A DNA stretch of 64,000 nucleotides from Steroidobacteraceae bacterium. Its GTDB lineage: Bacteria > Pseudomonadota > Gammaproteobacteria > Steroidobacterales > Steroidobacteraceae. The DNA is taken from the NCBI GenBank assembly GCA_036555785.1, contig DATBKP010000173.1, positions 21,299-85,298 of the forward strand, given 5' to 3'. A program made the translations under genes and the position numbers. The notes beneath the pieces are model-generated. The model had not been told where the DNA came from and made no database searches. It was given only the letters and a program-made list of their open reading frames with translations. Shown piece by piece: positions 8,287 through 55,731 of this stretch. Position 1 is the first letter of the stretch. Every line of letters begins with the position of its first letter.

Positions 8287-8330
8287 GGATGCAACTTAGC
8301 CAGCGACCGCTCGAGGGTGTGTGAACGGCA

Positions 8331-8972: not shown

Positions 8973-9061
8973 AGCCGCAGTCTACAGTTCGTCACGATTG
9001 CTCACGGTGCCTTGCCGCTCCCGCGTCTAACGTGCGCCGACCAGAGGGCTAGGAGGTCACG

Positions 9062-25716: not shown

Positions 25717-26496
25717 TTATTCTTCTTGGCGATCTTCGTCTTCACCTTCGCGCCTTGGCGAGACTGTCTTCTCTTCCTCCTTCTTCTCCCCCGCCGCCGG
25801 CATCCCTTTCGGCAGCAGCGTTTCGACGACGACCGTCGGCGCGAAGTAAGAGCGCCGATGGGAATCGCAGGACACTTTCTTGTCGAGCACTTTGACGTCG
25901 AGCTGCTTGAAGACGGTCGGGATCATCTGCTCCAGCAGCTCGCAGTCCTCGGGACGGAGGCGGATGGTGGCGCGTGACAGCGTCACTCGCTTGCGTTGCG
26001 CCGGGAAGATGATCGGGTCGTTGAGCGCGGCGAGCGGATTGCCGGTCACGCGCGACACCAGCTCGCGGCGCGACTTGTCCTTCTCGATTTCCTTCATCAC
26101 GTCCGGCGTGGCCTCGACCGGGAACATGACTTCGATGCGCACGTTGGAGGTCTGCATCCGATCGTCGCGCAGCCGCTCGTAGCGATCGGTCGGCCAGCCG
26201 AAGGGATCCGAGCGTCGCCACGGGGACTCGTCCGGCATCAGGAACAGCTCGCAGTTGCTGACCCGCACCTTGATGTCGTCGCGCGCGCCCAGGTTGAGCA
26301 GGATGGCGCCGACGTGCTGGCGCAGCTGGCCGCAGTCGAGCATGTTCGCGAAGCTGCGGTAGACGAACCGCACTTCGTGCACCTTGTAGACCGCGGCGAC
26401 ATCCTCCTGCGCGGCGGCCGCGCAGCTCGACGCGAGCGCACCGGCGGCGAGCAGCGCCGCCAATGCCTCAATCGAACGGCAGGATCTTCTCCTCAT
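25717..26496 (-). CDS. Secreted Cys-repeat protein, paralog A (two internal C-x26-C / C-x24-C modules, charged tail)
   Basis: Signal-like N-terminus. Clear homology to the 33520-34428 product (EIEKDKSRRELVSRVTGNP...DCELLEQM vs EVERDKSRRALVSRVQGNP...DCELLEQM). The start overlaps the lectin gene 3' end by 29 nt. Confidence 0.7.
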   Translation of the reverse strand: MRRRSCRSIEALAALLAAGALASSCAAAAQEDVAAVYKVHEVRFVYRSFANMLDCGQLRQHVGAILLNLGARDDIKVRVSNCELFLMPDESPWRRSDPFGWPTDRYERLRDDRMQTSNVRIEVMFPVEATPDVMKEIEKDKSRRELVSRVTGNPLAALNDPIIFPAQRKRVTLSRATIRLRPEDCELLEQMIPTVFKQLDVKVLDKKVSCDSHRRSYFAPTVVVETLLPKGMPAAGEKKEEEKTVSPRREGEDEDRQEE

Positions 26497-27946
26497 AGAT
26501 GAACTCGATGTTCGAGCCGCGCATCAGGTGCTCGCCGTTGAAATTCTCGCCGGCGACGTCACGGTAGCGTACGTGCTCGACGGCCCTCAGGAACAGCCTG
26601 ATGTCCAGCGCCGCAAGCCTGTAGGCGCCGCGCTCGTGGGACTTGATCGCGAGATCGAGCAGCACGCGCAGCGCCAGGTGATCGAGCTTCGGCAAGCCGC
26701 CTTTCACTTTCGCCTCGTCGACGGACGCGCGCAGCAGATCGAGCTTGTAGCGCTGCAGATCGATGAAGCTCTGGTGATTGCCTGCCGGGTTGCCGTCGGC
26801 GATCTCGTTGCCCGGTCCCGGATGAATGCGCAGGCCGACGAAATGATACGAGCCGTTGAGCACCTTGCCGCGCGAGCTGCCGCAATCGTAGGTCACTTCG
26901 GTGACCGTGCCGAAGTAGCGACCCGTGCCGCGCGAAGTCTCCAGCATCTCCTGCGGATCCTGCGCCTGCCACGCGACCACGTCGCGGTGCGACGGATCCG
27001 GATCGAATTGCCCGGCCGGGTTCTGGCGCAGCGCGCGACAGCCGAAGAGATTGTTGGGCAGCGCTTGCTCGGTCAGATTCTCGACCTCGATTGCGCCGCT
27101 GAGCACCTGCACGCCGCTGGTGTGAGTCTCGATCACGGTGAAGTCGGGATGACCGCATAGATACGGCGGGATGACGACGGCGCCATTGAACAGCGTCAGC
27201 GGCTGGTTGCCGCAGCGGCTGGGATTGTCGTGAATCGTCGTGACGCGTGCCGTCAGCGTCGCGCCCGGATCGACGACCGCTTCTGGCGGCAGCTGCAACA
27301 CCTGCGCGCCTGTCGGGTTGCACCCCGGACCGTCCGCCGTGCACGTGTCGGCGTCAACGGTGACCGCGCCTTCGCCGTATTCGACGACATAGCCCCACAC
27401 GTTCGGGAACGCACCTTCGTCGTTCCAGCCGAACACGCCGTTGAGTCCGATGGCCAGGTGCTCCTCGGTCGCGCGGTGCAACGAATCCGGGGTCCGGTGC
27501 AGGTTGTTCGGCTCGCCGCTCTGCCAGTTGGTGTACGGCGACGGGCCGTTGGTGGGCGCGATCGACTCGCCGTTGAGCCACATCCAGCCGCAGCCGGGCT
27601 CGGGTGTCGTCGTCGCGCACGGTACCTGGAATCCGCCGACCCACAGCTCAGTGCCGCTGAGCGACGGATGTGGGGCGTTCAGCACCTGCTGACGCAGCTG
27701 ATGCACGAAGGTGTCTTCCGCGGCCGAGCCGATCGTTGCGAGATGACCTTGCACACCCTGGAACGAGCGCTGCTCGGCTGCGGCCTTGGCCGCGTCCCAG
27801 CTGATCTTGTTCGCGATGACGACCTGGTAGTAGTGGCCGTCGAATTGCACCGGCGCCGGCGGCGTGAAGTTCGTCGCGCCCGCCGGCAGCGCGGCGCAGC
27901 CGAGCACCGCGGCAATGACGGAGGGAATCGTTCGGATCGAAGACAT
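26468..27946 (-). CDS. Secreted C-type lectin domain protein (EPN + WND motifs) with ~300-aa uncharacterised C-terminal region
   Basis: ATG at 27946, preceded by GGGGAGAG 5 nt upstream. Signal peptide MSSIRTIPSVIAAVLGCAALPAGA. CTLD landmarks: WDAAKAAAE..GHLATI.S..E..F, WVGG, QSGEPNN (nt 27506-27514), GWNDE (nt 27419-27427). Confidence 0.8.
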   Translation of the reverse strand: MSSIRTIPSVIAAVLGCAALPAGATNFTPPAPVQFDGHYYQVVIANKISWDAAKAAAEQRSFQGVQGHLATIGSAAEDTFVHQLRQQVLNAPHPSLSGTELWVGGFQVPCATTTPEPGCGWMWLNGESIAPTNGPSPYTNWQSGEPNNLHRTPDSLHRATEEHLAIGLNGVFGWNDEGAFPNVWGYVVEYGEGAVTVDADTCTADGPGCNPTGAQVLQLPPEAVVDPGATLTARVTTIHDNPSRCGNQPLTLFNGAVVIPPYLCGHPDFTVIETHTSGVQVLSGAIEVENLTEQALPNNLFGCRALRQNPAGQFDPDPSHRDVVAWQAQDPQEMLETSRGTGRYFGTVTEVTYDCGSSRGKVLNGSYHFVGLRIHPGPGNEIADGNPAGNHQSFIDLQRYKLDLLRASVDEAKVKGGLPKLDHLALRVLLDLAIKSHERGAYRLAALDIRLFLRAVEHVRYRDVAGENFNGEHLMRGSNIEFIYEEKILPFD

Positions 27947-27987: not shown

Positions 27988-30900
27988 TCAGCTGCGCACA
28001 GCCTGTGCCAGGTATTTCGCGGCTTTGTCCGGCCGGCCCGTGCTCTGATACAACCGGCCGAGCCAGCGATCCGAGCTCTTCAGGTAGTAACTCACCGCGC
28101 CGCTGCCGCCGTGGAGCACCGCATGGCTGTCCACGAGCAGCGGCTCGGCCCGATCGAATTGCCTCAGGCCCGCGCGCGCCGCGCCTTCGGCGCTGGCGGC
28201 CGTCGCGGTCCTCCAGTGATCGGCGCCGAGCGATTTCAGAAACAGGGCATGCGCGTCGGTCGCGAGCTGCAGCGCTTCGTCGTAGCGCTGGGTCTCGATC
28301 AGCACGCCGGCGAGCAGCGTCATGGTCGCCGCGGTGTCGGCGTGCTCCGGACCGAGACGCTTGCGGCGCACTTCGAGCGCGTCGCGCAGCAACTTCTCCG
28401 CCGCCGCGAAATCGTTGCGCTCCATCATCCACATCGCGAGATTGCTCATGCCGCGCGCGACCGATGGATGGTCTGCGCCGAGTGCGCGCGTATAGGTGTC
28501 GAGAGCCGCGCGCGACAGCTCGATGGACGTCTTCAGGTCGCCCTTGTCGTGCACGACGAACGCCAGGTTGTTGAGCGTCATCGCAACGTCCGGATGATCC
28601 GCGCCGAGGAGCTTGCGCTGCATCTGCAGCGCACTTTCGTAATACTGCTCCGCCTCGTCGTACTTGCGCTGCTCGTACAGCGCGCCCGCCACGTTGTTGA
28701 GCCCGATCGCGATCTCCGGATGCGAGCTGCCGAGCAGCACGCGCTTCATATCCAGCGCCTCGCGGAACAGCTGCTCGGCTTCGCGGCTCTGGCCGGTCTC
28801 GTCGATCACGAAGCCCAGGTTGTTCAGCGCCTCGGCGAGCGCCGGGTGCGGCCCGTCGTGGATCTCGCGCCGTATCGCCACCGCTTGCCGCAGCAGCTTT
28901 GCGGCGTCCTGATACGAGCCCTGGTCGTAGAGATTCAGCGCCAGACCTTCCAGGCTCTGCGCGACTTCCGCGCTGCGCGCGGGGAACAGCTTCTTGCGCA
29001 GCGCCAGCGCTTCGCGGAACAGCGGTTCGGCCTGGGTGAATTCGCCCCTGCGACCGAGCAGGTCGCCGAGCTCATACACGCTGCGCGCAGTGTCGACGTT
29101 TTCGTTGCCGAGCATCTCGCGACGCATCGCCAGCGCTTCGCGATACATCTGCTCCGCGGGCTCGTACTCGGCCTTGAGCTTGAGCACTTCGCCCAGACGA
29201 TCCAGCGAGCGCGCGACTTCCGGATGCTTTTCACCGTACAGCGCGCGCCGCTTCTCGAGCGCACTGCGCAGCAGCCCCACCGCCTGGTCGTACAGCCCGA
29301 GGCTGGTATAGACGGTGCCCATCGTTTCCATGAGCGTCGCCTGCGTCGCCGGCTGCGTCTTCAGCTCCGTGTCGATGCGCAAGGCGCCCTTGTCCATGAT
29401 CTCGCGGGCAGTGATCGTGTTGCCGCGCGCTTCGCTCGGATCCGCGACGTTGAACAGGTCGATCATGAAGTTCGTCGTCTGCTTCGCGGTCTCGGCCTCG
29501 GTCTCGGCGCTGCGGCGCGCCTGGTTCGCCAGTCCGCGCTGGTGATCGGCGAAGTAAGCGAAGAAGCCCGCGAGAATGGCCAGCGCAGCGATGCCGATCA
29601 CGGCGCCCGTGCGCATCCGCTGGACGCGCCGCTCGCGCGCCATCGAAGCCTGGATGAATCCGGCTTCGTCGGCCGCCAGCTCGATTCCCTGCTCCAGCAG
29701 CGATTCCGCTTCCACCAGCGGCTTGCCCGGCGGCAGCAACAGGTCGTTGCTCTTGTTCTCCGCCGCCCAGCGCTCGGCTGCAGCGGCGATACGCGAGCGC
29801 ACGCGCAGGTTCTCGCGGTTCTGCGCCACCCAATCGGTGACGCGCGGCCAGTGCCAGAGCAACGCTTCGTGCGCGACGGTGACCACGGCGCTGCCGTCAT
29901 CGGCGAGCTCGGTGACGTACAGCCGGTTCTCGACGAATGCGTCGATCAGCACGCGACTCTTGCCGGTGAACCGATCGGACCACGGCGCGCGCTTGCGGCC
30001 GACAGTCTCGTGCCCATCCTGCTCGATGCTCACCAGCGCGTTGAGCACTTTCGGCAGCTCGGCCTCCACGTCGTCCGGCAATTCCTTGAACACCGCTTCG
30101 GCGCGCTGCGCCAGCGAGCCTTCGACGCCGCCGAGCTCGCGGTAGGCCGCGAGCGTCAGCAATCCGTCCTCGGTGCGCCGCTGATAGAGCTCTTCGAGCG
30201 TGAACTGCAGCAGCGGCAGGATCTCGGGTCGCGCGACTGCCGCGTCGCGCAGCATGTCGTCGAGCGACTCGTTGGTGTTCGGATCTTCTTCGAAGCGCAG
30301 ACCGGCCGCGCGCGTCGGCAGCCGGATCATCTGTCCGATCTCGCTCGCGTTCGGCGGCATCAGGTCGTATTGGCCCGCGCCTTCCTTCAGCGCGCTGAGT
30401 TTCGGCAGCGCCGCCAGTCGCGGGTAGAAATCGCTGCGCAGCGTGCAAATGACCCACACTCGGCCGCTGCGTGCGAACGCGTCGACGACCTCGATGAACG
30501 CCTCGCGATGCTCGGGTGTGATGCCCTCGTGCGTGAACATCTCTTCCATCTGGTCGATGACCAGCGCGAGCCGGCCATTCGACTTGTCGCCGCCCGCCTC
30601 GCGCGCGAGCGCATTGCGGACGAGCGCCGTCGCTGCCTGCGGCGACTGGCGCAGCACCTGTGCGAGCTCATCGGCACCCGTGCCGTCGGCGTCGAGCGAG
30701 GGCAGGGCATCCTCCTTCAGCAGCGCCCGCGCGAGACCGGCGAAGATGTCGCCCCGAACGTCGGTTGGCCTGAACACGGCGCGTCGCCAGAACGCGATGC
30801 CTTCGATCACGCCGGGCTTGGTCAGCATCGGCAGCACGCCGGCACGCACGACCGAGGATTTGCCGCCGCCGCTCATGCCGAGGATCAACACGAACGAGCG

Positions 30901-31629
30901 ACCGTCGGCCGCCTGTGCGCGCAGCGCCTGTAGAATGCCGGACACCGCGCGCGTGCGGCCGAAGAAGACCGGAGCGTGCTCGAACTCGAACGCCGCGAGG
31001 CCGCGGAACGGCGAGCCCCTCTTCCAGACATCGCGTGCTTCGGAGGTGCCGGCTGCGCTGCGCGGCAGCTGCCGCTCGATCAGCCGCCGGAGGTGATTCT
31101 CCAGCAGGATCTCGAAATCGCTCGGCGACTCGAACGGATGGAAGGCCGCGACCAGCGTGCCCTCGGTGCGATCGTGGAACCACTTGTCGATGAACTCGTC
31201 GAGCTTCTTCTTCTGCGCCAGCCGCTCCATCAGGTCGCGCTCGTCGTCGAGCCGCACCGACGGCGGCGCAGTGCGCCGATAGACGAGCAGGTCCGGCTTG
31301 CCGTTCTTGCGGAAGCCTTCCATCGCTTCCTCGAACTCGTACTCGGTGCCGGATTCGTAGCGCGAGCCGTCGGCACGCGTGAACTGCGCCGGCAGCGGCG
31401 TGCCCAGGCGCGACCAGACGATGCAGACGACGACGTCCGCCTCGGACGGTTTGACCAGTTGCACCTGGAACGTGGCGGTGGCGACGAGGGGCTCGTGCTC
31501 CCACAGCACGGTTTCGAGAGCGACGCGGCCCATGTACTCGCTTTGCAGCCGCTCGATGACGCGGCCGGCGAGGGCACGCTCCTCGCACACATCGCCGGGC
31601 GAAGAGATGAAGAACTGCAGCTTCCTCAC
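27988..31629 (-). CDS. DUF4062/TIR-like N-terminal domain + nSTAND1-type P-loop NTPase + single TM helix + TPR array
   Basis: N-domain: KLQFFISSPGDVCEER...ADVVVCIVWSRLGTPLP...SGTEYEFEEA. NTPase: PFRGLAAFEFEHAPVFFGR, Walker A GMSGGGKSS (nt ~30853-30879), Walker B LALVIDQMEE (nt ~30541-30570), VAHEALLWHWPRV. TM helix GAVIGIAALAILAGFFAYFA (nt ~29551-29610) follows RERRVQRMR. About 470 aa of TPR follow. The probable start is GTG 31629 (MRKLQFF); the track start TTG 31686 is the alternative. Confidence 0.9.
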   Translation of the reverse strand: MRKLQFFISSPGDVCEERALAGRVIERLQSEYMGRVALETVLWEHEPLVATATFQVQLVKPSEADVVVCIVWSRLGTPLPAQFTRADGSRYESGTEYEFEEAMEGFRKNGKPDLLVYRRTAPPSVRLDDERDLMERLAQKKKLDEFIDKWFHDRTEGTLVAAFHPFESPSDFEILLENHLRRLIERQLPRSAAGTSEARDVWKRGSPFRGLAAFEFEHAPVFFGRTRAVSGILQALRAQAADGRSFVLILGMSGGGKSSVVRAGVLPMLTKPGVIEGIAFWRRAVFRPTDVRGDIFAGLARALLKEDALPSLDADGTGADELAQVLRQSPQAATALVRNALAREAGGDKSNGRLALVIDQMEEMFTHEGITPEHREAFIEVVDAFARSGRVWVICTLRSDFYPRLAALPKLSALKEGAGQYDLMPPNASEIGQMIRLPTRAAGLRFEEDPNTNESLDDMLRDAAVARPEILPLLQFTLEELYQRRTEDGLLTLAAYRELGGVEGSLAQRAEAVFKELPDDVEAELPKVLNALVSIEQDGHETVGRKRAPWSDRFTGKSRVLIDAFVENRLYVTELADDGSAVVTVAHEALLWHWPRVTDWVAQNRENLRVRSRIAAAAERWAAENKSNDLLLPPGKPLVEAESLLEQGIELAADEAGFIQASMARERRVQRMRTGAVIGIAALAILAGFFAYFADHQRGLANQARRSAETEAETAKQTTNFMIDLFNVADPSEARGNTITAREIMDKGALRIDTELKTQPATQATLMETMGTVYTSLGLYDQAVGLLRSALEKRRALYGEKHPEVARSLDRLGEVLKLKAEYEPAEQMYREALAMRREMLGNENVDTARSVYELGDLLGRRGEFTQAEPLFREALALRKKLFPARSAEVAQSLEGLALNLYDQGSYQDAAKLLRQAVAIRREIHDGPHPALAEALNNLGFVIDETGQSREAEQLFREALDMKRVLLGSSHPEIAIGLNNVAGALYEQRKYDEAEQYYESALQMQRKLLGADHPDVAMTLNNLAFVVHDKGDLKTSIELSRAALDTYTRALGADHPSVARGMSNLAMWMMERNDFAAAEKLLRDALEVRRKRLGPEHADTAATMTLLAGVLIETQRYDEALQLATDAHALFLKSLGADHWRTATAASAEGAARAGLRQFDRAEPLLVDSHAVLHGGSGAVSYYLKSSDRWLGRLYQSTGRPDKAAKYLAQAVRS

Positions 31630-31773
31630 GTTTCGCCCTGTGATCGGTATCGCGACAGTGATTCTCGCGCCGGACTGTACTCTCAAAAGTCTTGCTGTGA
31701 AAGCCGTAAATACTTGTAGCGCCTTGCATTATGAACTCACAATGCGCGTCCTCCGTTGTCGGCTTTTTTGACT
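31630..31773. promoter_or_regulatory. Divergent control region between the STAND and SLOG-SLATT genes, locally AT-rich
   Basis: The stretch ctcaaaagtcttgctgtgaaagccgtaaatacttgtagcgccttgcattatgaactcacaatg is far less GC-rich than its surroundings. Possible sigma70-like TTGTAG-N17-TCACAAT on the + strand. Confidence 0.4.
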
Positions 31774-33510
31774 ATGAGCTCACCTTTCGTAATCGGCGTG
31801 TCCGGACATCGCGATCTGCACTCCGGCGCGCTCTCGCAACTCAGCCTCCGGATCGACGAGTTCCTGGCCGACCTGAAGCGGCGCCTGCCCGATACCGAGC
31901 TGCGCATCATGACGGGCATGGCGCAAGGCGCGGATCTGCTGGTGGCGCGAGCGGCGGCGAGGGCCGGATGCAAGGTGGATGCGGTGCTGCCGATGCCGCT
32001 CGAGGAGTACATCGCGGACTTCGACGCGGAGTCGTCGACGGCGCTGCGCGCGTTGCTCGCGGATCCGGCGGTCGCCTGCACGGTACTGCAGCCCCCGCCC
32101 GGATCCGATACGAGTGATGTATCCGGCGCCAGTCGCTCGGCGTTCTATGCGAATCTCACGCACACGCTGACCGCGAAGTGCAATCTGCTGCTCGCACTCT
32201 GGGATGGCCGCACTTCTGCGCTCGAGGGCGGCACGGCGGACACCGTGCTGCGTTATCTCGGCGCGCGCACTCATCACGGCCACAACGAGTCGCAGATCGA
32301 GTTCCAGGCCGCGACTGCCGAGGCGGCCTGGGGTCCGCATTTCGTGTACTGGATTCCAACGCTGCGCAGCGACGGCGCGGCGCTGACGTCAGCTGAGCCA
32401 GCCTACCTGACCGGCATAGGCGAGCATCTGCTGGCCGACCACGGTAGGCAGATGCCGCACGCACTGGCGCTGCAGTTCGTCGAGCTGAGTACCTACAACC
32501 ACGAGTTTGCGCGGCTGAGCGGCAAGCACGCCTTCGCGCGGCTGGACACCTTGTTGCCGACGCTGGGCTCGGTCGACGCCGCGGACGAGCGTGGGGCGCT
32601 GCAGCGGATCGACGCGGAGTACGGCAAAGCGGATGCACTCGCGATCTACTATCAGCGGCACTCCGACCGGCTGTTCCGTGGCTTCAGCTACACGGCGTCA
32701 TGCATGGCGCTGCTGTTCCTGATCTACGCCAAGCTCTGGGCAAACTCCGTGCTGCTATCCGTCTATCTCACGATCCTGCTGCTCAGTGTCGTGGTGTTCC
32801 ATCGCTTGCGCACGCGCCAGTGGTTCTCGAAGCACCTGGTCTATCGCGTGCTGGCCGAGACGATGCGCATCAAGTTCTTCCTGCGCGCCGTCGGCGCCGA
32901 CCGGCTCGTCAGCGCCGCCGAGCTGATCAATCTCACCGGGATCGATCAGTTCACCGGCTTCAGCTGGATCGGCAATCTGCTGAAGAACGTGGAGCCGATC
33001 GACGTGCGCGCACGCAACGGCGAGGCTGTGGAGCGCGCGCGTCTCGCGAACGTGCATCGGCACTGGATCGTCGGTCAGCAGGAATACTTCCGCAGGCGGG
33101 TGCGCGCGCTGGAGCGCGACCATCGACGACTGGAAGTACTAAAGAGTGCGCTGCTCTATGCGATCGCGACGTTCGCGCTGATCCTGCTGGTGTTCGCCAT
33201 CCCGTTGCACGAGCGGCTGCTCGGCGCGGTCACCTGGAAGGACGCGGTGCTGTTCCTGATGGGCCTGCTGCCGGTATGGCTCGGCATCTGGGAGCTCTAC
33301 CAGAACAAGATGGCGATGCGCGAGCTGCTGTGGCAGTACCGCAATCAGCTCGGCCACTTCACCATCGCCGAGCTGCAGCTGTCGCGCGATACGACGGCGG
33401 ACCGTTCACAGGAAATTCTCGCGCAAGTCGGCAAGGAAGCGCTGATGGAGAGCTATCTGTGGACGATCCACCGCTTCCATCGCGAGTACGAGCCGCCGGC
33501 GGCGACGTGA
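31774..33510 (+). CDS. SLOG-like Rossmannoid domain fused to two SLATT/DUF4231-like 2TM modules
   Basis: N-domain: FVIGVSGHRD...RIMTGMAQGADLLVARAAARAG...VLPMP...LLLALWDG..SALEGGTADTV. The first 2TM pair is aa 304-343 (nt ~32683-32802), followed by W..H.VYRVLAETMR. The second pair is aa 457-508 (nt ~33142-33297), preceded by QQEYFRRRVRALERDHRR. ATG at 31774; the track start 31756 is TTG. Confidence 0.8.
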   Translation: MSSPFVIGVSGHRDLHSGALSQLSLRIDEFLADLKRRLPDTELRIMTGMAQGADLLVARAAARAGCKVDAVLPMPLEEYIADFDAESSTALRALLADPAVACTVLQPPPGSDTSDVSGASRSAFYANLTHTLTAKCNLLLALWDGRTSALEGGTADTVLRYLGARTHHGHNESQIEFQAATAEAAWGPHFVYWIPTLRSDGAALTSAEPAYLTGIGEHLLADHGRQMPHALALQFVELSTYNHEFARLSGKHAFARLDTLLPTLGSVDAADERGALQRIDAEYGKADALAIYYQRHSDRLFRGFSYTASCMALLFLIYAKLWANSVLLSVYLTILLLSVVVFHRLRTRQWFSKHLVYRVLAETMRIKFFLRAVGADRLVSAAELINLTGIDQFTGFSWIGNLLKNVEPIDVRARNGEAVERARLANVHRHWIVGQQEYFRRRVRALERDHRRLEVLKSALLYAIATFALILLVFAIPLHERLLGAVTWKDAVLFLMGLLPVWLGIWELYQNKMAMRELLWQYRNQLGHFTIAELQLSRDTTADRSQEILAQVGKEALMESYLWTIHRFHREYEPPAAT

Positions 33511-33519
33511 GCGGATCGC

Positions 33520-34428
33520 TTATTTCGCTTGGGCCTTGCGCTGCGCGGCCTCGTCGGCGCGCTTCTTGGCACGCTGCTCGCCGGGCATGAGATAGCCGAC
33601 CGGCAGCAACGCCTCGACCTTCAGCTGCGGCTTGAACGAACGCGAATCGCACGACAGCGACGAGCTGTTCACCTTGAAGCCGAGCTCGCGGAACACGGTG
33701 CGGGACATCTGCTCGAGCAGCTCGCAATCGAGCGGCTCGAGCTCGATCGTCTCGTGCGACAGGTGGACCTCGCGGCGCTCGGCGGCGAAGAAGATCGGAT
33801 CGTCCATCGCCGTCGACGGATTGCCCTGCACGCGCGAGACCAGTGCACGGCGCGACTTGTCCCGCTCCACTTCGGCGAGGATCTCCGGCGTGATGACGAC
33901 CGGCAGCATGAGCTGGATGTAGACCGGCGTCGTTTGCGACTTGTAACGATCGAACTGGTCGCCGTGGGTCAACGTCTGGCGGCGCGCCATCCGCTGGTCG
34001 ATCGGGCTGCGCATGAGGTCGTTGTTGCTGCCGGTGAAGTCGCCGCCGCCGGGCTGAAACGTGCCCGAGGCGTTCGGGTCCGACCTGCGGGGCGAGCGGG
34101 CATCGGTCACGAACGCATCGCATTCGCGAGCGCTCACCTGGACGTCGTCGCGCGCGCCCAGCTCGCGCAGGATCGTCGCGACGCGATTACGGATCTCGTC
34201 GCACGCCAGGATGCTGTTGGTGCTGCGATAAGTGAAGTTGACTTCGCGCGCCTTCAGCACCGCGGCAAATTGCCCGGGCGGCAATTGCTGGGCCTGCTCC
34301 TGCGTATGCAGCTGCTCTTGCGTGCTCTGCGCAGCCGGATCCTGCTCCTGCGCGCAAAGCGCGCTGCAAATCGCGAGCGAGCCGGTGGCAACCGCGACCA
34401 GCGCGGAGCGGGTGAGTGTGCGAGGCAT
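33520..34428 (-). CDS. Secreted Cys-repeat protein, paralog B
   Basis: ATG at 34428 with signal peptide MPRTLTRSALVAVATGSLAICSALCA. Same two-module Cys pattern as paralog A, a Q-rich N-terminal linker and a basic tail. Confidence 0.75.
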   Translation of the reverse strand: MPRTLTRSALVAVATGSLAICSALCAQEQDPAAQSTQEQLHTQEQAQQLPPGQFAAVLKAREVNFTYRSTNSILACDEIRNRVATILRELGARDDVQVSARECDAFVTDARSPRRSDPNASGTFQPGGGDFTGSNNDLMRSPIDQRMARRQTLTHGDQFDRYKSQTTPVYIQLMLPVVITPEILAEVERDKSRRALVSRVQGNPSTAMDDPIFFAAERREVHLSHETIELEPLDCELLEQMSRTVFRELGFKVNSSSLSCDSRSFKPQLKVEALLPVGYLMPGEQRAKKRADEAAQRKAQAK

Positions 34429-34650: not shown

Positions 34651-36171
34651 ATGGAACTGGCGTTGTCCAGCCGTTTCGACCCGCGTGTTTCGCGCAGAAT
34701 GTATGGCGTCGCTGCCTCCGCAGCGGTGCACGTCGCCCTGTTGCTCTTCATTATGTTCGGCGGCAATCAGTACGGCATCGACGCCGAAGACACGCCGACT
34801 TCCAAGCTGGTACTGATCGAAGCGCCCGACGCCGAGCAGCGCGATGGCGAGGATCTGCCGCCGATGCCTGCCGGCTCGACCGCGCCTAGCGAAGTCGAGC
34901 TCGAACAGGCGCTGGCGAAACTGTCGCCGCCGCAGAGCGAAACGATCGCGGACCAGGCGGTCGAGCCGGGTCCGATCGATGAAGTGCAGGCGCCGGTCGC
35001 CGCGCCGGTTGCGATCGCGGCCGTCGAAGGACCCGAGTCGACGATCACGATGCCTTCGAACGAGCGGGCCGCCTTGTCGCGACGTCTCGAGCAGCTGGCC
35101 GCGGAGGCGCTCAAATCGTCGCGCTCCGAAGTGACCTGGGAGCAGGATGGCCGGCAGTACAACGCGCTGCTGATCCGCGAGCGCGCGAACGAAGGCACGG
35201 CGCTGGAGCGGGTGACCGCGCAAGTCAGCGCGTCGGATCACGGCAGGAAGATGACGACGCTGGTGAATCTGAACCGACTGTCGTTCTCGCAGTTCACGCA
35301 GATGGTGGATCACTGGGATCCGATGGTGCAGATCCACGACGACGAGATCGTCGGCCGCTTCCACAGCAACTCGCGCTTCAGCCTGCTGTCGGACTCGCGC
35401 AGCGCGCCGAAATTTCTCGGCAAGGTGACCACCACCGCGCGCGGGTTCAACAGCGAGTCGATCGGCCGGCTGCGCGACGCCGAAATCTTTCGCGGCGGCA
35501 TCGAGACCGGCACCAGCGAGATCGAGTTGCCGGCATCGTCGCAGCCGTTCCAGTGGGCGCCGCGCGACGAGCAGGCGCGCGTGCACGAGCTTGCGGGCGA
35601 CACGCGCATTCGTTTCTTCCCCGACGGCAGCTATCGCTGGACCGACATCGACTCGGCGCAGTCGCATTACCTCAACGACCCGTCGGACCATCCGGTGTAT
35701 TTCATCGCGACCGGCAAGGCGGCGCTGCAGGTCGAGGGCGTCGTGTCCGGCAAGATCCTGGTGTACTCGCCGCGACGCGTAGTGATCGAAGGCAGCATCA
35801 CGTACGCCGACGATCCGCGCCACAACGCCAGCTCGGAAGACTATCTCGGCATCGTCAGCGACCGCGTGGTCGAAGTGGCGCCGCCCGCTGTCACCGGCGG
35901 TGGCGACCTGGAAATCGACGCCGCGATCTTCGCCGGCCATCGCTTCGTCGTGACGGGCATCGATCATCCGCGCACCGCGACGCTGCGCATCTACGGCAGT
36001 CTCGCGGCCGGCACGATCTCGGCGACCGAGCCGCGCTACGCCACCAAGATCGACTACGACCCGCGCTTCGAGCGCCGGCGCCCGCCGGGCTTCCCTGCCA
36101 CCAACCGCTACGAAGCGGCCGAGTGGGACGGCAAGTGGACTGAGCAACCGCAGCAATCCGCCGGCAACTAG
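34651..36171 (+). CDS. N-terminally membrane-anchored exported protein, unknown function (Pro/Glu-rich spacer + large beta-rich domain)
   Basis: GGGGGGAG precedes ATG 34651. TM anchor VAASAAVHVALLLFIMFGG, then an acidic Pro-rich spacer. The C-terminal region has repeated beta-strand patterns. The upstream part of track ORF 33529-36171 is a shadow. Confidence 0.7.
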   Translation: MELALSSRFDPRVSRRMYGVAASAAVHVALLLFIMFGGNQYGIDAEDTPTSKLVLIEAPDAEQRDGEDLPPMPAGSTAPSEVELEQALAKLSPPQSETIADQAVEPGPIDEVQAPVAAPVAIAAVEGPESTITMPSNERAALSRRLEQLAAEALKSSRSEVTWEQDGRQYNALLIRERANEGTALERVTAQVSASDHGRKMTTLVNLNRLSFSQFTQMVDHWDPMVQIHDDEIVGRFHSNSRFSLLSDSRSAPKFLGKVTTTARGFNSESIGRLRDAEIFRGGIETGTSEIELPASSQPFQWAPRDEQARVHELAGDTRIRFFPDGSYRWTDIDSAQSHYLNDPSDHPVYFIATGKAALQVEGVVSGKILVYSPRRVVIEGSITYADDPRHNASSEDYLGIVSDRVVEVAPPAVTGGGDLEIDAAIFAGHRFVVTGIDHPRTATLRIYGSLAAGTISATEPRYATKIDYDPRFERRRPPGFPATNRYEAAEWDGKWTEQPQQSAGN

Positions 36172-36966: not shown

Positions 36967-39399
36967 ATGGAGTTGCTGACTCTCGCGCGCCGTGCTCGCG
37001 GCGCAATGGTCGTTGCCATCGCCCTGGCGCTCGCCGCCTGCGGCGGCGGCGGCGGTGGCGGCTCGCCGCCTCCAACTTCGAATCCGCCGCCTCCGCCTCC
37101 ACCGCCGCCGCCGCCGACGGTTTCGGTCACGGTGACGCCGGCCACGGTCGAAGAGGGCGACTCGGTGCAAGTCACGTGGTCCAGCAGCGGAGCCGTCCGC
37201 TGCGAGGCGGCCGGTGATGCGGCCTTCAGGGGAATCGGCTGGGCGAGCGGGCCGATCGCCCTGTCAGGCACGGTGACCGCAGGTCCGCTGCGAGCGACGA
37301 CCGACTTCTTCGTATCGTGCGCCACCGCCGCCGATGTGCCGGGCTCGGCGGGCCAGGGCGTCATCGTTGTGCCATCGCCGCCGGTGCTGACCCTGCAGGC
37401 GACTCCTCGAATCGTGCGCGACGGCCAGGCGACGCAACTCACCTGGACCGGCAGCCGGGTTACGGCCTGCGAGGCAGCGTCCAACTGGTCGGGCCCGCGC
37501 CCGACTTCCGGCGCGGAGACGGTCGGGCCGTTTCCGCTGGAGATCACGTACGACTTCAGGATGTCGTGCAAGGACTTGTTCGGCGATCCCGTCGACGCCG
37601 TGGTGTTCGTCGAGTCCCGCAAGGGCGCGAATGCACCGCCGGTTGCGGATGCCGGCCCCGATCGCAGCGAGGGGTCTGCGCATCGCGTCGATCTCAGCAC
37701 TTTCGGCAGCTCCGACGATCACGGCATCGTGTCCTCGATGTGGAGCCAGATCGCCGGGCCGAACGTCACGCTCCAGTTCGGCAACACGCAGCTCGACCGG
37801 AGTTTCACCGCGCCGATCGTCGACACCGACACCGTGCTGACCTTCGCGCTCACGGTGATCGACGACGAGGGACTGGCGAGCGCGCCCGACACGGTCGACA
37901 TCACGATCCTGCCGCTGCCGCCGATCGTGACGATCACCGGCAACGTGTCGTACCAGGAAGTGCCGCACGGTCCTGCCGGCACCGGCCTGGCCTACGGATC
38001 GCAGGATTTCGTGACGCTTCCGGACGTTCTGGTCGAAGTGCTGGATGCGAGCTCGCATACCGTGCTCGCCAGCGGCTCGTTCCCGACGAATTTCGTCTTC
38101 GACGTGCCGAGTGCGACCGATCTGCAGTTGCGTGCCACCGCCCTGACGTCGCGCCAGGCGCCGCAACCGCTGCCGCACTGGCAGATCTCGGTTCGTGACC
38201 TCGATTCGGCCGGCACGCCGATCGGTGACGTCTATTCGTATACGGGACCCGTTTTCAACAGCGGTCCCGGCGGTACGCAGGACTTGCAGATCCCATCGGG
38301 ATGGAGCTTTGGCGGGCAACTGATCGGGCCGCGCGCTGCGGCGCCGTTCGCGATTCTCGGGGCGCTCCGGCCTGCGCTCGATCATGCGCGCTCGACTTCC
38401 ATCGCGCCGCAGCCCGACCTGCCGGAGCTGCTCATCGACTGGTCGCCGAACAACAGCGGCGGCGAAACGTTCTTCCAGGCCGTGCCCGGCGGCACTTCGT
38501 ACATCGTGCTGGCCGGCGAAGCCGACGTCGACACCGATGAGTACGACCCGTCGGTGATCCGGCACGAGTTCGGGCACTTCATCATGTACAGCGTGTCGCG
38601 CGACGACTCGATCGGCGGTGCGCACGCGATCACCGACGCCGTCGATATGCGCGTGGCGGCCAGCGAAGGATTCGCCACGGCGTACGGCGCGCTCGTGTCG
38701 CACGACCCGGCGTACAACGACAGTTTCGGTCTCGGCCAGCGAAGCTCCGGATTCTTCAACCTCTCCTTCGATATCCAGCAGAACGAAGGCTGGTACAACG
38801 AATCGTCGGTGCAGGAGATCATGTGGCAGCTGCAGGACCTGGATCACTTCTGGACCGTGTTGAACGGGCCGCTGCGCAATGGTGATGCCATGGTCAGCCC
38901 GTTCGCGCTGTTTGCGGCGTACCGCGCAATCGAGCCGCTGCGCGCACCCACGGTCGATTTCCTGCTGCAGGAGGAGGGAATCGTCGGTCCGACGATCGAT
39001 GCCTACGGCAGCACCGAGACCAACAACGCGCATTCGATTGCCGTGCTGCCGGTTTACACGCCGATCTCGATCGGCGGCGGGTCGAAGGCAGTGCGCAGTA
39101 CCAACCAGTTCGGCACCGGCAACAAGCTGTCCGTGCACCGCTATCTGCGGCTGAACGTGCCGACAGCCGGTAACGTACGGTTCCGCGCCTCGGCGGCCAT
39201 CGGCCGCGATCCCGACATGCTGGTCTATCGTCGCGGCGTGTCGGTCGGACCGGCTCCGGGTCTCGCGAATGAAGATTTTTCGCTGGTGCTGCAGCCCGGC
39301 GACTACGTCATCGACGTTTACGATTGCGGCAACGCCGAGTGCAACTCGAGCGTGACGCCGGGGCCAGTCGACATCACCGTCACTGTCACGACGAGCTGA
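36967..39399 (+). CDS. Lipoprotein: PKD-like domain + HExxH metalloprotease candidate + pre-peptidase C-terminal (PPC)-like domain
   Basis: Lipobox LALAAC (Cys25, nt 37039-37041). Gly7 and Pro-rich linker. PKD-like NAPPVADAGPDR...LTVIDDEGLASAPDTVDITI. HEFGH at nt 38563-38577. The C-terminal domain looks PPC-like. Confidence 0.85.
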   Translation: MELLTLARRARGAMVVAIALALAACGGGGGGGSPPPTSNPPPPPPPPPPPTVSVTVTPATVEEGDSVQVTWSSSGAVRCEAAGDAAFRGIGWASGPIALSGTVTAGPLRATTDFFVSCATAADVPGSAGQGVIVVPSPPVLTLQATPRIVRDGQATQLTWTGSRVTACEAASNWSGPRPTSGAETVGPFPLEITYDFRMSCKDLFGDPVDAVVFVESRKGANAPPVADAGPDRSEGSAHRVDLSTFGSSDDHGIVSSMWSQIAGPNVTLQFGNTQLDRSFTAPIVDTDTVLTFALTVIDDEGLASAPDTVDITILPLPPIVTITGNVSYQEVPHGPAGTGLAYGSQDFVTLPDVLVEVLDASSHTVLASGSFPTNFVFDVPSATDLQLRATALTSRQAPQPLPHWQISVRDLDSAGTPIGDVYSYTGPVFNSGPGGTQDLQIPSGWSFGGQLIGPRAAAPFAILGALRPALDHARSTSIAPQPDLPELLIDWSPNNSGGETFFQAVPGGTSYIVLAGEADVDTDEYDPSVIRHEFGHFIMYSVSRDDSIGGAHAITDAVDMRVAASEGFATAYGALVSHDPAYNDSFGLGQRSSGFFNLSFDIQQNEGWYNESSVQEIMWQLQDLDHFWTVLNGPLRNGDAMVSPFALFAAYRAIEPLRAPTVDFLLQEEGIVGPTIDAYGSTETNNAHSIAVLPVYTPISIGGGSKAVRSTNQFGTGNKLSVHRYLRLNVPTAGNVRFRASAAIGRDPDMLVYRRGVSVGPAPGLANEDFSLVLQPGDYVIDVYDCGNAECNSSVTPGPVDITVTVTTS
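37042..37116 (+). repeat. In-frame GGC/GGT run (7 Gly codons, 37042-37062) and CCN run (11 Pro codons, 37084-37116)
   Basis: Read directly: ggcggcggcggcggtggcggc and ccgccgcctccgcctccaccgccgccgccgccg. Confidence 0.9.
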
Positions 39400-55477: not shown

Positions 55478-55563
55478 CTTGAGTCTCCCCACGCCCGGCG
55501 CTCCCCGGCGGTCCGGGCGCAATACCGGCGTAAGTACCCGCCGCCGGTGTTCAGATTCTAGGC

Positions 55564-55587
55564 GACCCGGCCGCCGGCGGCCGGGTC
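55564..55587. repeat. Perfect 24-bp palindrome GACCCGGCCGCCGGCGGCCGGGTC
   Basis: All 12 base pairs checked position by position. It lies in the divergent region between the kinase and the small secreted paralogs. Confidence 0.95.
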
Positions 55588-55622
55588 CTGCGGACCCTGA
55601 CACTTCTACACATAACGGGGAG

Positions 55623-55642
55623 CCCCGCCCGACCCCGCCCGA
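55623..55642. repeat. Tandem direct decamer CCCCGCCCGA x2
   Basis: Read directly: 55623-55632 and 55633-55642. Confidence 0.95.
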
Positions 55643-55731
55643 TCGTGCGACAGGAGCTTGCAAAGCCGGTAGCGAATGTGTGCAATCGCCCGCTCGGGGG
55701 CCTTCCTGTCATTTGAACCTGGGGAGAATTC

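Follow-up and report, generated by a model that had tools for sequence, protein, structure and literature searches.

A Divergent DUF4062-like STAND and SLOG–2TM Gene Pair from a Steroidobacteraceae Bacterium as a Candidate NAD+-Derived Signalling Module

Introduction

Do two divergent genes of a Steroidobacteraceae bacterium form a module in which a TIR-like enzyme signals to a membrane effector, and does such a module serve in conflict? The locus lies within a 64,000-nucleotide stretch of DNA, here called the window. In type I Thoeris, a TIR protein makes 3′cADPR, which acts through a SLOG domain. In type VII Thoeris, the TIR-made signal is canonical cADPR and the effector is ThsH, annotated as a SLATT protein alone, with ligand pockets predicted between SLATT protomers (10.64898/2025.12.03.692087). 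A sequence-only reading of the window had proposed a candidate Thoeris-like conflict system with no known experimental precedent. The lack of precedent holds for the present layout but not for its parts, since TIR + SLATT type VII Thoeris was validated in a 2025 preprint and 2026 preprints showed DUF4062 to be an NADase effector domain with the products ADPR and nicotinamide (10.64898/2026.05.01.722283, 10.64898/2026.09.04.749371).

Gene Starts and Intergenic Region

27988..31629, minus strand: gene A, NIR/DUF4062-like–nSTAND1–TM–TPR protein, 1213 aa from GTG 31629
31630..31773, no strand: divergent intergenic region, exactly 144 bp with the inferred starts of A and B
31774..33510, plus strand: gene B, SLOG–2TM–linker–2TM protein, 578 aa from ATG 31774

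Both large genes and their ~144-bp spacer were found as first described. The longest open reading frames, 27988..31686 (minus strand, 1232 aa) and 31756..33510 (plus strand, 584 aa), both start with TTG. The orthologues of gene A begin at 'V/MRKLQFFISSPGD', which makes GTG 31629, and not TTG 31686, the likely true start. The orthologues of gene B begin at 'MSSPxVIGVSGHR', which points to ATG 31774 as its likely start, and the database entry for the gene B of the window (P0001) is 578 aa. Coding-type codon bias was seen in gene A (GC3 0.87) and gene B (GC3 0.84). Sequence searches returned hundreds to thousands of homologues of each, indicating that both genes are real. The gene A orthologues in L001–L005 showed 80–94% identity.

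The GC content of the intergenic region was 0.50, compared with 0.663 for the window. The alignment of six orthologous loci, including L001–L005, showed three (near-)invariant blocks with few interspersed variable columns, at 31673–31682 (GACTGTACTC), 31701–31717 (AAGCCGTAAATACTTGT) and 31723–31747, presumed to be promoters or an operator. The search for sigma-70-like promoters in this region gave one minus-strand match (31701..31674), not above chance.

Gene A

31060..31629, minus strand: DUF4062-like N-domain (NIR, predicted TIR-like NADase), ~aa 1–190
29746..31011, minus strand: nSTAND1 P-loop NTPase module, Pfam PF20703, 322.5 bits vs cut-off 27.1
29548..29604, minus strand: single TM helix, aa 676–694 (AVIGIAALAILAGFFAYFA), Kyte–Doolittle 2.33
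27991..29361, minus strand: C-terminal TPR_10/TPR_12 array, ~9 repeats, Pfam ~1e-78

Profile matches identify the N-domain as a divergent DUF4062. It matched Pfam DUF4062 over model positions 2–82 of 82 (E 3.2e-4 at 21.3 bits; scores 17.8–21.3 bits), under the curated cut-off of 24.7 bits, and PADLOC PDC-S60 (3.6e-9). The DUF4062 family was matched by 28/45 relatives. The AF2 model showed a five-stranded alpha/beta structure (pLDDT 86.7). Glu98, within the GTEYEFE motif, was invariant across 45 sequences; the catalytic Glu of characterised DUF4062 proteins is E97, E98, E103 or E108 (10.64898/2026.05.01.722283, 10.64898/2026.09.04.749371). The sequence-only reading had called this domain TIR/NDT-like. 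The motifs it quoted for both proteins (FFISSPGDVCEER, VVVCIVWSRLGTPLP, SGTEYEFEEA, VSGHR, GMAQGAD, GGTADTV) were all present in the translations. Direct TIR homology was not detectable: profile–profile comparison with the partner TIRs (hhalign) detected no similarity (probability 2.5%), and Foldseek gave a non-specific result with no specific TIR/NDT top match.

The STAND NTPase and TPR array, also proposed earlier, were assigned unambiguously by profile (nSTAND1 E 7.3e-96). The Walker A motif of nSTAND1 is GMSGGGKS (aa 251–258). The NIR-nSTAND1 relatives keep the TM helix at the same position, and in TIR-TM-TPR partners the equivalent helix lies directly C-terminal of the TIR domain. K+R around this helix was 5.2–5.6 on the N-side and 2.7 on the C-side; 75/78 proteins showed N>C, in keeping with the positive-inside rule. 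From this asymmetry, the TPR array of gene A and its TM-TPR relatives is predicted to be periplasmic and not cytoplasmic. Animal Toll-like receptors have the topology predicted for the TIR-TM-TPR partners and, with NIR-STAND, for gene A: a repeat sensor outside the cytoplasm, one TM helix, and a TIR-class domain inside. The similarity is analogy, not homology: the present order is inverted with the enzyme N-terminal, the repeats are TPR and not LRR, and signalling is expected to proceed by enzyme activity instead of adaptor scaffolding.

The NIR/DUF4062 defence proteins PsAvs2, Vulcan, Vesta, Swarozyc and Evangelion (2026 preprints) also carry an N-terminal DUF4062-like domain with a conserved Glu at ~98, and PsAvs2 has the same DUF4062–STAND–TPR order as gene A. 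They are mostly single genes, and their characterised DUF4062 domains are NAD+-depleting effectors, not signal makers, which runs against the model proposed below. In contrast to gene A, no TM helix, no sensor in the periplasm and no partner with SLOG or SLATT domains is reported for any of them, and the full texts of 10.64898/2026.09.04.749371 and 10.64898/2026.06.25.731849 do not mention SLOG, SLATT or 'transmembrane'. The STAND module of gene A also differs in being nSTAND1. NAD+ depletion by PsAvs2 is sufficient for defence (10.64898/2026.09.04.749371), and gene A alone might be such an Avs-like abortive-infection effector, with gene B not a receiver but a second independent effector or a neighbour by inherited synteny. 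We regard this as improbable: Avs sensors bind phage proteins intracellularly, whereas the TM helix would place the TPRs outside the cytoplasm.

Gene B

31783..32439, plus strand: SLOG (YpsA/DprA-like Rossmannoid) domain, conserved GHR, GxAxGAD, LWDG and GGT loops
32686..32802, plus strand: first 2TM hairpin, DUF4231/SLATT_3-like, aa ~305–343, by hydropathy
33151..33300, plus strand: second 2TM hairpin, SLATT_1-like, aa 460–509, by hydropathy

The word-index search gave 597 homologues of gene B, every one unnamed, and 8017 related cluster representatives were found at E<=1e-3 (1104 at E<=1e-30). Among the curated Pfam and NCBIfam models, none spans the family over its full length. The AF2 model (pLDDT 83.7, pTM 0.83) and hydropathy put all soluble mass in the cytoplasm.

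The SLOG assignment was confirmed at the level of the modelled fold, which lies nearest to the YpsA/DprA-like non-LOG clade. Foldseek matched YpsA (2nx2; E 1.2e-3, with a TM-score of 0.62 on the target), along with DprA, ShosA (8zva), LOG, TM1055 and BcThsA-SLOG (7uxs; E 0.087). The Pfam YAcAr match was under cut-off (3.6e-4); among 34 relatives, 8 matched YAcAr and 4 matched DprA. The GHR, GAD and GGT loops were invariant in the family alignments, which is compatible with catalysis, and true enzymes such as LOG exist among SLOG clades (PMC9503650). The polarity could be the reverse of that proposed here: the SLOG domain would be a LOG-like N-glycosidase of nucleotide/ADPR derivatives or a primary membrane-stress sensor, and TIR/NIR-STAND a downstream NAD+-depleting effector, as known DUF4062 domains are; alternatively, breakdown of the signal by the SLOG protein would set a threshold. 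We consider this very improbable, because the YpsA/DprA-like clade is implicated in ligand sensing, gene B joins its SLOG domain to a membrane module of effector type, and the TPR sensor and STAND/REC switch sit on the TIR/NIR protein and not on gene B.

The earlier assignment of two SLATT/DUF4231 modules was borne out in relatives only, and mostly under cut-off; the gene B of the window matched no SLATT model in Pfam. In relatives, DUF4231 and SLATT_3 matches fell on the first hairpin (P0316, 28.1 bits vs cut-off 24.7) and SLATT_1 matches on the second (best 25.7 bits vs cut-off 26.3). The two hairpins showed no detectable kinship to each other. The best-conserved motif of the family, YR[AV]LAE[GT][LM]R, directly follows the first hairpin and was used as the search pattern for finding relatives. 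Conserved C-terminal helices follow the second hairpin (QNKMAxRELLWQYRNQL...SYLWTIHRYHRE).

Gene B falls in the general SLOG–SLATT architectural class. Such fusions were reportedly predicted computationally by Burroughs et al. in NAR in 2015, and their association is reflected in the Pfam name 'SMODS and SLOG-associating 2TM effector domain'. By functional analogy only, gene B would resemble TRPM2, a cation channel of eukaryotes that is gated by ADPR and has a SLOG-like MHR1/2 domain at its N-terminus: in both, a cytoplasmic SLOG-fold domain that responds to a product of NAD+ breakdown would control the membrane conductance module to which it is fused. The membrane domains are unrelated (6TM TRP vs 2x2TM). 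The TRPM entries in the structure search were poor global alignments (rmsd ~30) and give no evidence of homology.

Gene C

26468..27946, minus strand: gene C, predicted secreted or lipoprotein C-type-lectin-like protein, 492 aa

The locus had been read as a pair, overlooking gene C, whose start lies 41 nt beyond the stop codon of gene A and which probably shares a transcript with it. Its sequence has a signal peptide (MSSIRTIPSVIAAVLGCAALPAGA) and EPN and WND motifs. Lectin_C matches in three orthologues (E 0.011, 0.00098 and 0.0086) were all under cut-off, and snaclec matches had E 0.06. Gene C is kept as the immediate downstream neighbour of the TPR gene in L001–5, L049, L045 and L043 (the TIR version), and likewise in metagenome loci L081, 84, 86, 92, 94 and 100. 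The C-type-lectin-like gene is a recurrent third member, taken here as an accessory one.

Linkage of Gene B Relatives with TIR/NIR Genes

Comparative linkage is the strongest result of the analysis. Among gene B-relative loci from 80 species-representative genomes, a TIR or DUF4062-like (NIR) gene lay within ~6 kb in 42/80 loci, in all four gene orientations. The linkage anticipated by the sequence-only reading was thus strongly present in other taxa, spanning Steroidobacterales, Lysobacterales, Woeseiaceae, Thioalkalivibrio, Pseudomonadales, Rhodobacterales and Burkholderiales. The partners were TIR_2/ThsB_TIR-TM-TPR (28 loci), NIR-nSTAND1-TM-TPR (6), REC-NIR (6), NIR-NB-ARC-TPR (1) and SIR2-TIR (1). 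Many are bona fide TIR_2/ThsB_TIR proteins on the chassis of gene A: TIR and NIR-STAND take the same place on TM-TPR segments that are homologous (TM-linker 50–63%, TPR 38–49% identity), a swap which argues that both do the same job. Carrying the sensor and the switch, the TIR/NIR protein would be the logical upstream component.

The flanks of the other 38/80 gene B loci had no TIR or NIR gene. In the reciprocal search, a gene B relative was found in 19/80 N-domain loci, leaving 61/80 without one. Both counts favour a self-sufficient, NAD+-depleting gene A. Against it, most N-domain loci without a gene B relative sit on short contigs, and 8/13 loci with >=2.5 kb on both flanks had one. Inherited synteny is also hard to invoke for a linkage that recurs in several orders, in every orientation and with partners of four unrelated architectures. 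As an internal control, a TIR-TM-TPR gene was found in 0/80 N-domain-seeded metagenome loci.

Genomic Setting and the Defence Question

The idea of a conflict system in a defence island was not supported. The locus lies in syntenic chromosomal DNA among sensory and metabolic genes, and no mobile-element or defence marks were found in the window context. Searches of 72,556 plasmids and 50,697 phages found no homologues, and the 134 neighbour proteins gave only ~10 generic PADLOC matches and no consistent defence island. Synteny is conserved at 75–83% protein identity. At 81–94% identity in orthologues, the TPR sensor is better conserved than gene B, in contrast to phage sensors, which evolve fast. 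Next to the six REC-NIR partners lie a hybrid histidine kinase with PAS/GAF domains and a single REC. These findings, together, cast doubt on a defence role, which is unproven. A TPR-GGDEF gene is among the neighbours in locus L036.

The same findings, the TPR-GGDEF neighbour, the predicted periplasmic TPRs and the secreted lectin-like partner favour a housekeeping second-messenger pathway with the same wiring. Here an envelope, glycan or environmental cue would enter through exchangeable inputs (TM-TPR with STAND, or two-component REC), and the SLOG-4TM protein would be a regulated, non-lethal ion channel. We judge this possible but somewhat unlikely: TIR_2/ThsB_TIR, DUF4062, STAND, SLOG and SLATT are overwhelmingly defence-linked in the literature, the SLATT effectors characterised to date kill cells, and SIR2-TIR and NB-ARC partners and the paralogous systems within Steroidobacteraceae (L015, L024, L025, L027) are typical of conflict systems.

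Proposed Mechanism

Our preferred reading, to which we give slightly less than even odds (about 0.45), is a membrane-embedded, outside-in NAD+-derived signalling module with genes A and B as its core, gene C as an accessory and, provisionally, a conflict or stress role. Gene A would act as a receptor that spans the inner membrane once. Its TPR array would face the periplasm, possibly working with secreted gene C, and its nSTAND1 NTPase and DUF4062/NIR domain, a TIR-like NAD+ glycohydrolase, would lie in the cytoplasm. A periplasmic cue would cause STAND oligomerisation and switch on the NADase, which may release ADP-ribose or a related or cyclic derivative. We infer that the SLOG domain of gene B binds this product and thereby controls the gating or assembly of its two SLATT-like hairpins; membrane permeability would change, leading to depolarisation and growth arrest. 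The analysis shows the domain architecture, the conserved catalytic Glu and Walker A of gene A, the predicted topology and the conserved linkage of gene B relatives with TIR or NIR proteins of several interchangeable architectures, whereas the direction of signalling, the ligand, pore activity and the trigger belong to the model.

Like type I Thoeris (ThsB TIR + ThsA SIR2-SLOG), the locus sets the gene of a putative NAD+-cleaving TIR-class enzyme beside that of a SLOG receiver; orthologous loci carry true TIR_2/ThsB_TIR domains, and BcThsA-SLOG was among the structural matches of gene B. It differs in that the effector is a 4TM SLATT-like module and not SIR2, the enzyme is DUF4062-like on a STAND-TM-TPR receptor whereas ThsB is a small cytosolic TIR, the SLOG domain is nearer YpsA/DprA than ThsA, and defence-island context is absent. 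With type VII Thoeris it would share a TIR-made, NAD-derived signal that turns on a SLATT-type membrane effector. Unlike that system, it has a dedicated SLOG domain before two different 2TM modules, a transmembrane TPR receptor as partner and, in the window, a gene B with no direct SLATT Pfam match.

The proposal of a Thoeris-like conflict system is partly supported. Provisionally, and by analogy, the module may act in an envelope-triggered conflict or stress response with Thoeris-like logic. Its wiring would resemble that of Thoeris anti-phage immunity, in genomic surroundings that are unlike a typical defence island.

Gene models and intergenic region

The sequence-only reading had placed a divergent gene pair at 27988-33510. 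The two open reading frames (ORFs) were found there, at 27988..31686 (-) and 31756..33510 (+), and all of the quoted peptide motifs are present in their translations. The N-termini of orthologues indicated that the true start of the first ORF (gene A) is GTG 31629, giving a protein of 1213 aa. Orthologue N-termini and an identical 578-aa database entry indicated ATG 31774 as the true start of the second (gene B, 578 aa). With the revised starts, the gap described as AT-rich and about 144 bp long is exactly 144 bp, and its GC content is 50%, against 66.3% for the window. Both genes have a coding-like codon-position GC, and the nearest homologues of both proteins are annotated as Steroidobacteraceae.

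Genes of the module and conserved intergenic blocks (blocks from the alignment of six orthologous loci)
26468..27946 (-), gene C, secreted or lipoprotein C-type-lectin-like protein
27988..31629 (-), gene A, DUF4062-like (NIR), nSTAND1, transmembrane (TM) helix and TPR protein
31774..33510 (+), gene B, SLOG, 2TM, linker and 2TM protein
31673-31682, intergenic block 1, GACTGTACTC
31701-31717, intergenic block 2, AAGCCGTAAATACTTGT
31723-31747, intergenic block 3, CTTGCnTTnTGAAnTCAnAATGCG

The three blocks are invariant or nearly so across the six loci, which suggests conserved regulation. Most likely, these parts of 31673-31747 represent promoters or an operator on which some regulator acts. As for LexA or another known operator, the blocks, judged by eye, did not fit the motifs of E. 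coli (CTGT-N8-ACAG) or Xanthomonas (TTAG-N6-TACTA). Rfam gave no match in the blocks, a search for short repeats in the intergenic region gave nothing convincing, and the counts of a promoter and terminator scan were not above the shuffled expectation.

Domain organization of gene A

The gene A product had been described as a STAND P-loop NTPase with a TPR array, and the Pfam matches agree (nSTAND1, 7.3e-96; TPR_10/TPR_12, ~1e-78). The nSTAND1 match (PF20703) scored 322.5 bits against a cut-off of 27.1 and spans all but the last of the 379 model positions (1-378). The Walker A motif is intact (GMSGGGKS, aa 251-258), and the TPR array comprises some nine repeats in Pfam. NCBIfam gave only TPR-type matches below threshold.

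The N-domain (the first ~190 residues) matched DUF4062 (PF13271) over the whole model (positions 2-82 of 82) but below the cut-off of 24.7 bits: the entire protein scored 17.8 bits, and the domain by itself 21.3 bits. DUF4062 matched 28 of 45 close relatives (40-91% identical) at E<0.01, the best at 8.7e-6, and some database relatives already carry this annotation. The PADLOC candidate family PDC-S60 matched the same region at 3.6e-9. DUF4062 was recognised as a TIR-like NADase ("NIR") only in 2026 (10.64898/2026.05.01.722283; 10.64898/2026.09.04.749371; 10.64898/2026.06.25.731849). Its catalytic Glu is E97 in KpSwz, E98 in Vulcan, E103 in VstA and E108 in PsAvs2 (10.64898/2026.05.01.722283; 10.64898/2026.09.04.749371). 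In gene A, Glu98 of the GTEYEFE motif is invariant across the 45-sequence alignment, and by its position and motif we infer that it is the counterpart of this residue.

The N-domain had also been proposed to be TIR- or nucleoside deoxyribosyltransferase (NDT)-like. In its AF2 model (pLDDT 86.7), helices alternate with parallel strands, of which there are at least five. A Foldseek search of the model against the PDB placed generic flavodoxin-like folds on top and the first TIR domain (RPV1, 5ku7) at rank 50 (E 0.011), a result that is not usable for or against the TIR/NDT fold. The TIR families TIR_2 (PF13676) and ThsB_TIR (PF08937) are absent from the Pfam matches of gene A. The hhalign comparison of the N-domain profile with a profile built from the TIR domains of 26 proteins found beside gene-B relatives showed no similarity (probability 2.5%), and a PDB sequence search with the N-domain profile gave nothing significant. 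Because Foldseek was non-specific and the hhalign probability was 2.5%, we name the domain DUF4062-like, at the family level, and not TIR.

A single strongly hydrophobic helix (aa 676-694) lies between the NTPase and the TPRs. Its position is kept in the NIR-nSTAND1 relatives, and the TIR-TM-TPR proteins beside gene-B relatives have an equivalent helix right after the TIR domain. The K+R count flanking the helix is 5.2-5.6 on the N-side versus 2.7 on the C-side, and the N-side is higher in 75 of 78 proteins. Because of this positive-inside asymmetry, the NADase-type domain and the NTPase are predicted to be cytoplasmic and the TPR array periplasmic. The window also encodes a Ser/Thr protein kinase with a TM helix (aa ~483-501) and TPRs in the same layout, at 52658..55663 (-). 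BLAST showed no similarity between its TPRs and those of gene A.

The domain order of gene A (N-terminal enzyme, STAND, C-terminal repeats) is that of Avs and NIR-Avs2. Gene A differs from Avs in the conserved TM helix between STAND and TPRs and in the predicted periplasmic location of the repeats, whereas the Avs sensor recognises a phage protein inside the cytoplasm. On these grounds, we do not assign gene A to Avs.

Gene C and other associated genes

Gene C starts 41 nt past the gene A stop and is preceded by a GGGGAG motif, and the two genes are probably co-transcribed. Its product has a signal peptide or is a lipoprotein, and its EPN and WND motifs are C-type-lectin hallmarks. Lectin_C matches were consistent but below cut-off in three orthologues. 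The comparison with snake C-type lectins reached E 0.06, and a PDB sequence search gave nothing significant. In the Steroidobacteraceae loci and two others (L049, L045), gene C comes after the TPR gene; in L043 it comes after the TIR-version gene, and several metagenome loci also contain it. Because this secreted protein adjoins a gene with predicted periplasmic TPRs, the two may form an extracytoplasmic sensing complex.

In Lysobacterales, other small genes occupy the gene C position. The commonest encode a ~135-aa family ending in 'CDPxIxN', which has a weak DP-EP Pfam match (E 0.011) and is sometimes duplicated.

Members of the 'CDPxIxN' family directly downstream of a TIR-TM-TPR gene (locus and coordinates)
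L029, 9902-10300 and 10410-10814
L038, 6875-7279
L055, 9787-10263
L063, 5548-5970
L080, 5120-5458 and 5545-5955

The three-gene module is bracketed by a paralogous pair, 25717..26496 (-) and 33520..34428 (-), encoding 259 and 302 aa. Both proteins have signal-peptide-like N-termini and no Pfam match, and the same bracketing occurs in three close orthologous loci (L002, L004, L005).

Gene B and its family

The SLOG-like domain proposed for gene B was recovered in both fold and glycine-rich loops. The sequence matches to YAcAr (a YpsA-related SLOG family, 3.6e-4) and DprA (0.033) were both below cut-off. The AF2 model (pLDDT 83.7, pTM 0.83) has an N-terminal alpha/beta domain, for which Foldseek returned YpsA (2nx2) with probability 1.00, E 1.2e-3 and a TM-score on target of 0.62. 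DprA (3uqz/5mll), ShosA (8zva) and the LOG-like TM1055 (1rcu) were matched with the same probability. The BcThsA SLOG domain bound to 3'cADPR (7uxs) was a weaker match (E 0.087). Across the alignment, the GHR, GxAxGAD, LWDG and GGT loops vary little or not at all. Based on the predicted structure, the SLOG assignment is solid. PADLOC gave only ShosA for gene B (E 0.026), NCBIfam has no family for it, and a PDB sequence search with the gene-B profile gave nothing significant.

By hydropathy, the first hairpin (TM1-TM2) lies at about aa 305-343 and the second (TM3-TM4) at 460-509. Because the outer loops are very short, essentially all of the soluble mass would be cytoplasmic. The two 2TM modules had been assigned to SLATT/DUF4231. 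The SLATT models of Pfam did not match the window gene B, and the assignment holds in its relatives at the family level only. Among 34 diverse relatives, DUF4231 matched 12, SLATT_1 8, SLATT_3 8, YAcAr 8 and DprA 4. The DUF4231 and SLATT_3 matches map to the first hairpin and the SLATT_1 matches to the second; among the SLATT-clan matches, only one relative (P0316) passed a curated cut-off (DUF4231, 28.1 bits versus 24.7). Gene B is thus described fairly as a SLOG domain with two SLATT-like 2TM modules. An internal duplication of the two modules was unsupported (hhalign probability 2.3%).

The word-indexed search returned 597 homologous proteins, and those listed are nameless or 'hypothetical protein'. 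A full HMMER scan at 50% clustering gave 8017 representatives at E<=1e-3 and 1104 at E<=1e-30, mostly full-length proteins of 560-600 aa. There is no informative name among the matches listed and no curated full-length model for the family.

Linkage of gene-B relatives with TIR and NIR genes

The gene-B-seeded scan, with one genome per GTDB species, yielded 80 loci. A TIR or NIR gene lies within ~6 kb in 42 of them, in all four relative orientations, and the linkage recurs in other taxa. A NIR-nSTAND1-TM-TPR partner adjoins gene B in five close orthologues and one Thioalkalivibrio MAG. In 28 other loci, the adjacent gene encodes a protein of 590-830 aa whose sequence begins 'YRAFISYSHRD..WA.WLH..LE.YRVP'. 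These loci belong to Lysobacterales, Rhodanobacteraceae, Wenzhouxiangellaceae, Woeseiaceae, Pseudomonadales and paralogous copies in Steroidobacteraceae. The N-terminus of these partners is a bona fide TIR_2/ThsB_TIR domain above cut-off (in L011, TIR_2 scores 48.2 bits against 28, and ThsB_TIR 35.9 against 21.2), followed by a TM helix and TPRs homologous to gene A (TM-linker 50-63% identical, TPR 38-49%). That TIR and NIR replace each other on a shared chassis speaks for a functional equivalence of both enzymes in these loci. Among cultured strains, those with a TIR-version locus, and hence tractable as hosts, are Lysobacter niastensis, Rehaibacterium terrae, Cognatilysobacter tabacisoli, Cognatiluteimonas profundi and Lysobacter daejeonensis.

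Six further loci, from Rhodobacteraceae and Burkholderiaceae, carry a HisKA-REC-DUF4062-like gene 3-4 nt downstream of the gene-B relative.

HisKA-REC-DUF4062-like genes in MAGs
L016, L018, L019, L021, L022 and L023, about 7700-9200 (+)

Genes for a PAS/GAF hybrid histidine kinase of 1330 aa and a single-domain REC flank this gene. The DUF4062-like domain is the C-terminal output of the encoded protein, which looks like an NADase-type response regulator. NIR-NB-ARC-TPR and SIR2-TIR partners were found in one locus each, the latter as a SIR2_2-TIR_2 fusion (L013:2-1666, -). Single gene-B relatives also lie beside an OmpR-type wHTH-STAND-TPR regulator (L006:493-3027, +) and a TPR-GGDEF diguanylate cyclase (L036:7785-9608, +).

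The reciprocal N-domain search found a gene-B relative in 19 of 80 metagenome loci, most of the negatives lying on short contigs. Of the 13 loci with 2.5 kb or more on each side, 8 were positive. The positive loci include tightly operonic ones (L116, L117, L125) and divergent ones like the window. As an internal control, a TIR-TM-TPR gene occurred in 0 of the 80 N-domain-seeded loci. Since the linkage outlasts changes of partner architecture, orientation and taxon, it provides strong evidence for functional coupling of gene-B relatives with their TIR or NIR partners.

Four Steroidobacteraceae MAGs (L015, L024, L025, L027) carry a second, paralogous gene-B copy with 35-38% identity, which in L024 and L027 adjoins a TIR-TM-TPR gene. 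These paralogous copies indicate that the family Steroidobacteraceae can hold both a NIR-type and a TIR-type system. A second copy was sought in the window, and none was found.

Genomic context and biological role

The window neighbours include a thioesterase, a PG-binding lysozyme-like protein, an SRPBCC protein, a GNAT, PKD/cadherin surface proteins, a GAF-GGDEF protein, a histidine kinase, the kinase-TM-TPR protein and a TonB receptor. Integrases, transposases and recognised defence genes were not detected among them, and tRNA and Rfam scans of the window found none. The GC content is flat across the locus (window, 66%). The left flank and the trio of genes A, B and C are syntenic in orthologues (75-83% identity), and the orthologue TPR arrays (81-94% identical) are more conserved than gene B (75-83%). 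A tblastn search with gene B across 72,556 plasmids and 50,697 genomes of phages found no match. PADLOC (E<=1e-8) gave about 10 matches among 134 neighbour proteins of 25 loci, mostly generic (WYL, kinase, helicase), and three SduA-like. A defence-island or mobile-element setting is not borne out by these metabolic, sensory and surface neighbours, the conserved synteny, the lack of plasmid or phage homologues and the few PADLOC matches.

The role of the module could be an abortive-infection-type defence or a physiological response to the envelope or environment. The domain repertoire speaks for defence, and the genomic context, the conservation of the sensor and the variants fused to REC speak for physiology.

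Two other genes of the window were recorded. The gene at 36967..39399 (+) encodes a protein of 810 aa that looks secreted. It has a G8/P-rich low-complexity tract (GGGGGGGSPPPTSNPPPPPPPPPPP) and, after this tract, a K319L-like PKD domain; a long shadow ORF runs on the opposite strand. The gene at 34732..36171 (+) is conserved, with no Pfam match, and its counterparts in L002 and L004 share 78-82% identity and the same relative position.

Comparison with Thoeris and proposed mechanism

The locus had been read as Thoeris-like. Like Thoeris, it pairs a candidate NADase gene with a SLOG protein, and in the TIR-partner loci a TIR generator lies beside an effector with a ligand-binding domain, so that these loci fit the Thoeris layout. 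The window locus differs from Thoeris in that its generator is DUF4062-like and not a detectable TIR, and in that it stands outside any defence island. In type I Thoeris, TIR produces 3'cADPR, which acts on SLOG; in type VII, TIR produces cADPR, which acts on a SLATT effector (10.64898/2025.12.03.692087). Among the papers found in our literature search, none reports DUF4062 paired with SLOG/SLATT, or TIR-TM-TPR receptors with this SLOG-4TM family. SLOG-SLATT fusions are reported to have been predicted computationally by Burroughs et al. in 2015 (NAR).

In the best-supported model, a cue from the periplasm would be detected by the TPRs, alone or together with the lectin-like gene C product, and would activate gene A. 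Its STAND module would oligomerise and switch on the NIR NADase, which would release ADPR or a derivative. The cytoplasmic SLOG domain of gene B could then bind the product, and the 4TM module would be gated or assembled. The direction of signalling from A to B rests on the sensor and switch being carried by gene A. Type I and type VII Thoeris supply precedents for the two halves of this model. TRPM2 is gated by ADPR, an analogy to gene B only. DUF4062 yields ADPR and nicotinamide in Swarozyc, PsAvs2, Vulcan, Vesta and Evangelion, and the action of DUF4062/NIR demonstrated so far is NAD+ depletion only (10.64898/2026.05.01.722283; 10.64898/2026.09.04.749371; 10.64898/2026.06.25.731849). Signal-making by some NIR domains is an explicit speculation of the authors of the September 2026 preprint (10.64898/2026.09.04.749371).

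A bolder reading, to which we give a probability of about 0.3, is a bacterial family of receptors with Toll-like-receptor topology (periplasmic TPR, TM, cytoplasmic TIR or NIR-STAND) that would turn extracytoplasmic cues into an NAD+-derived second messenger, which would gate a dedicated SLOG-4TM channel. The pathway would be vertically inherited and largely non-immune, and its enzyme-receiver core could alternatively be driven by a two-component phosphorelay through REC-NIR.

If true, this would be the first DUF4062/NIR domain to make a signal instead of depleting NAD+ as an effector. The NIR domain sits beside SLOG, where a ThsB-type TIR sits in the sister loci, which makes the idea of NIR signalling directly testable. 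The gene-B family is a large uncharacterised one, in which clustering at 50% identity leaves ~8000 representatives. Together, the TPR sensor predicted to be periplasmic, the lectin-like gene C and the REC variants suggest that bacterial TIR-class NAD signalling may be triggered outside the cytoplasm and may reach beyond phage defence.
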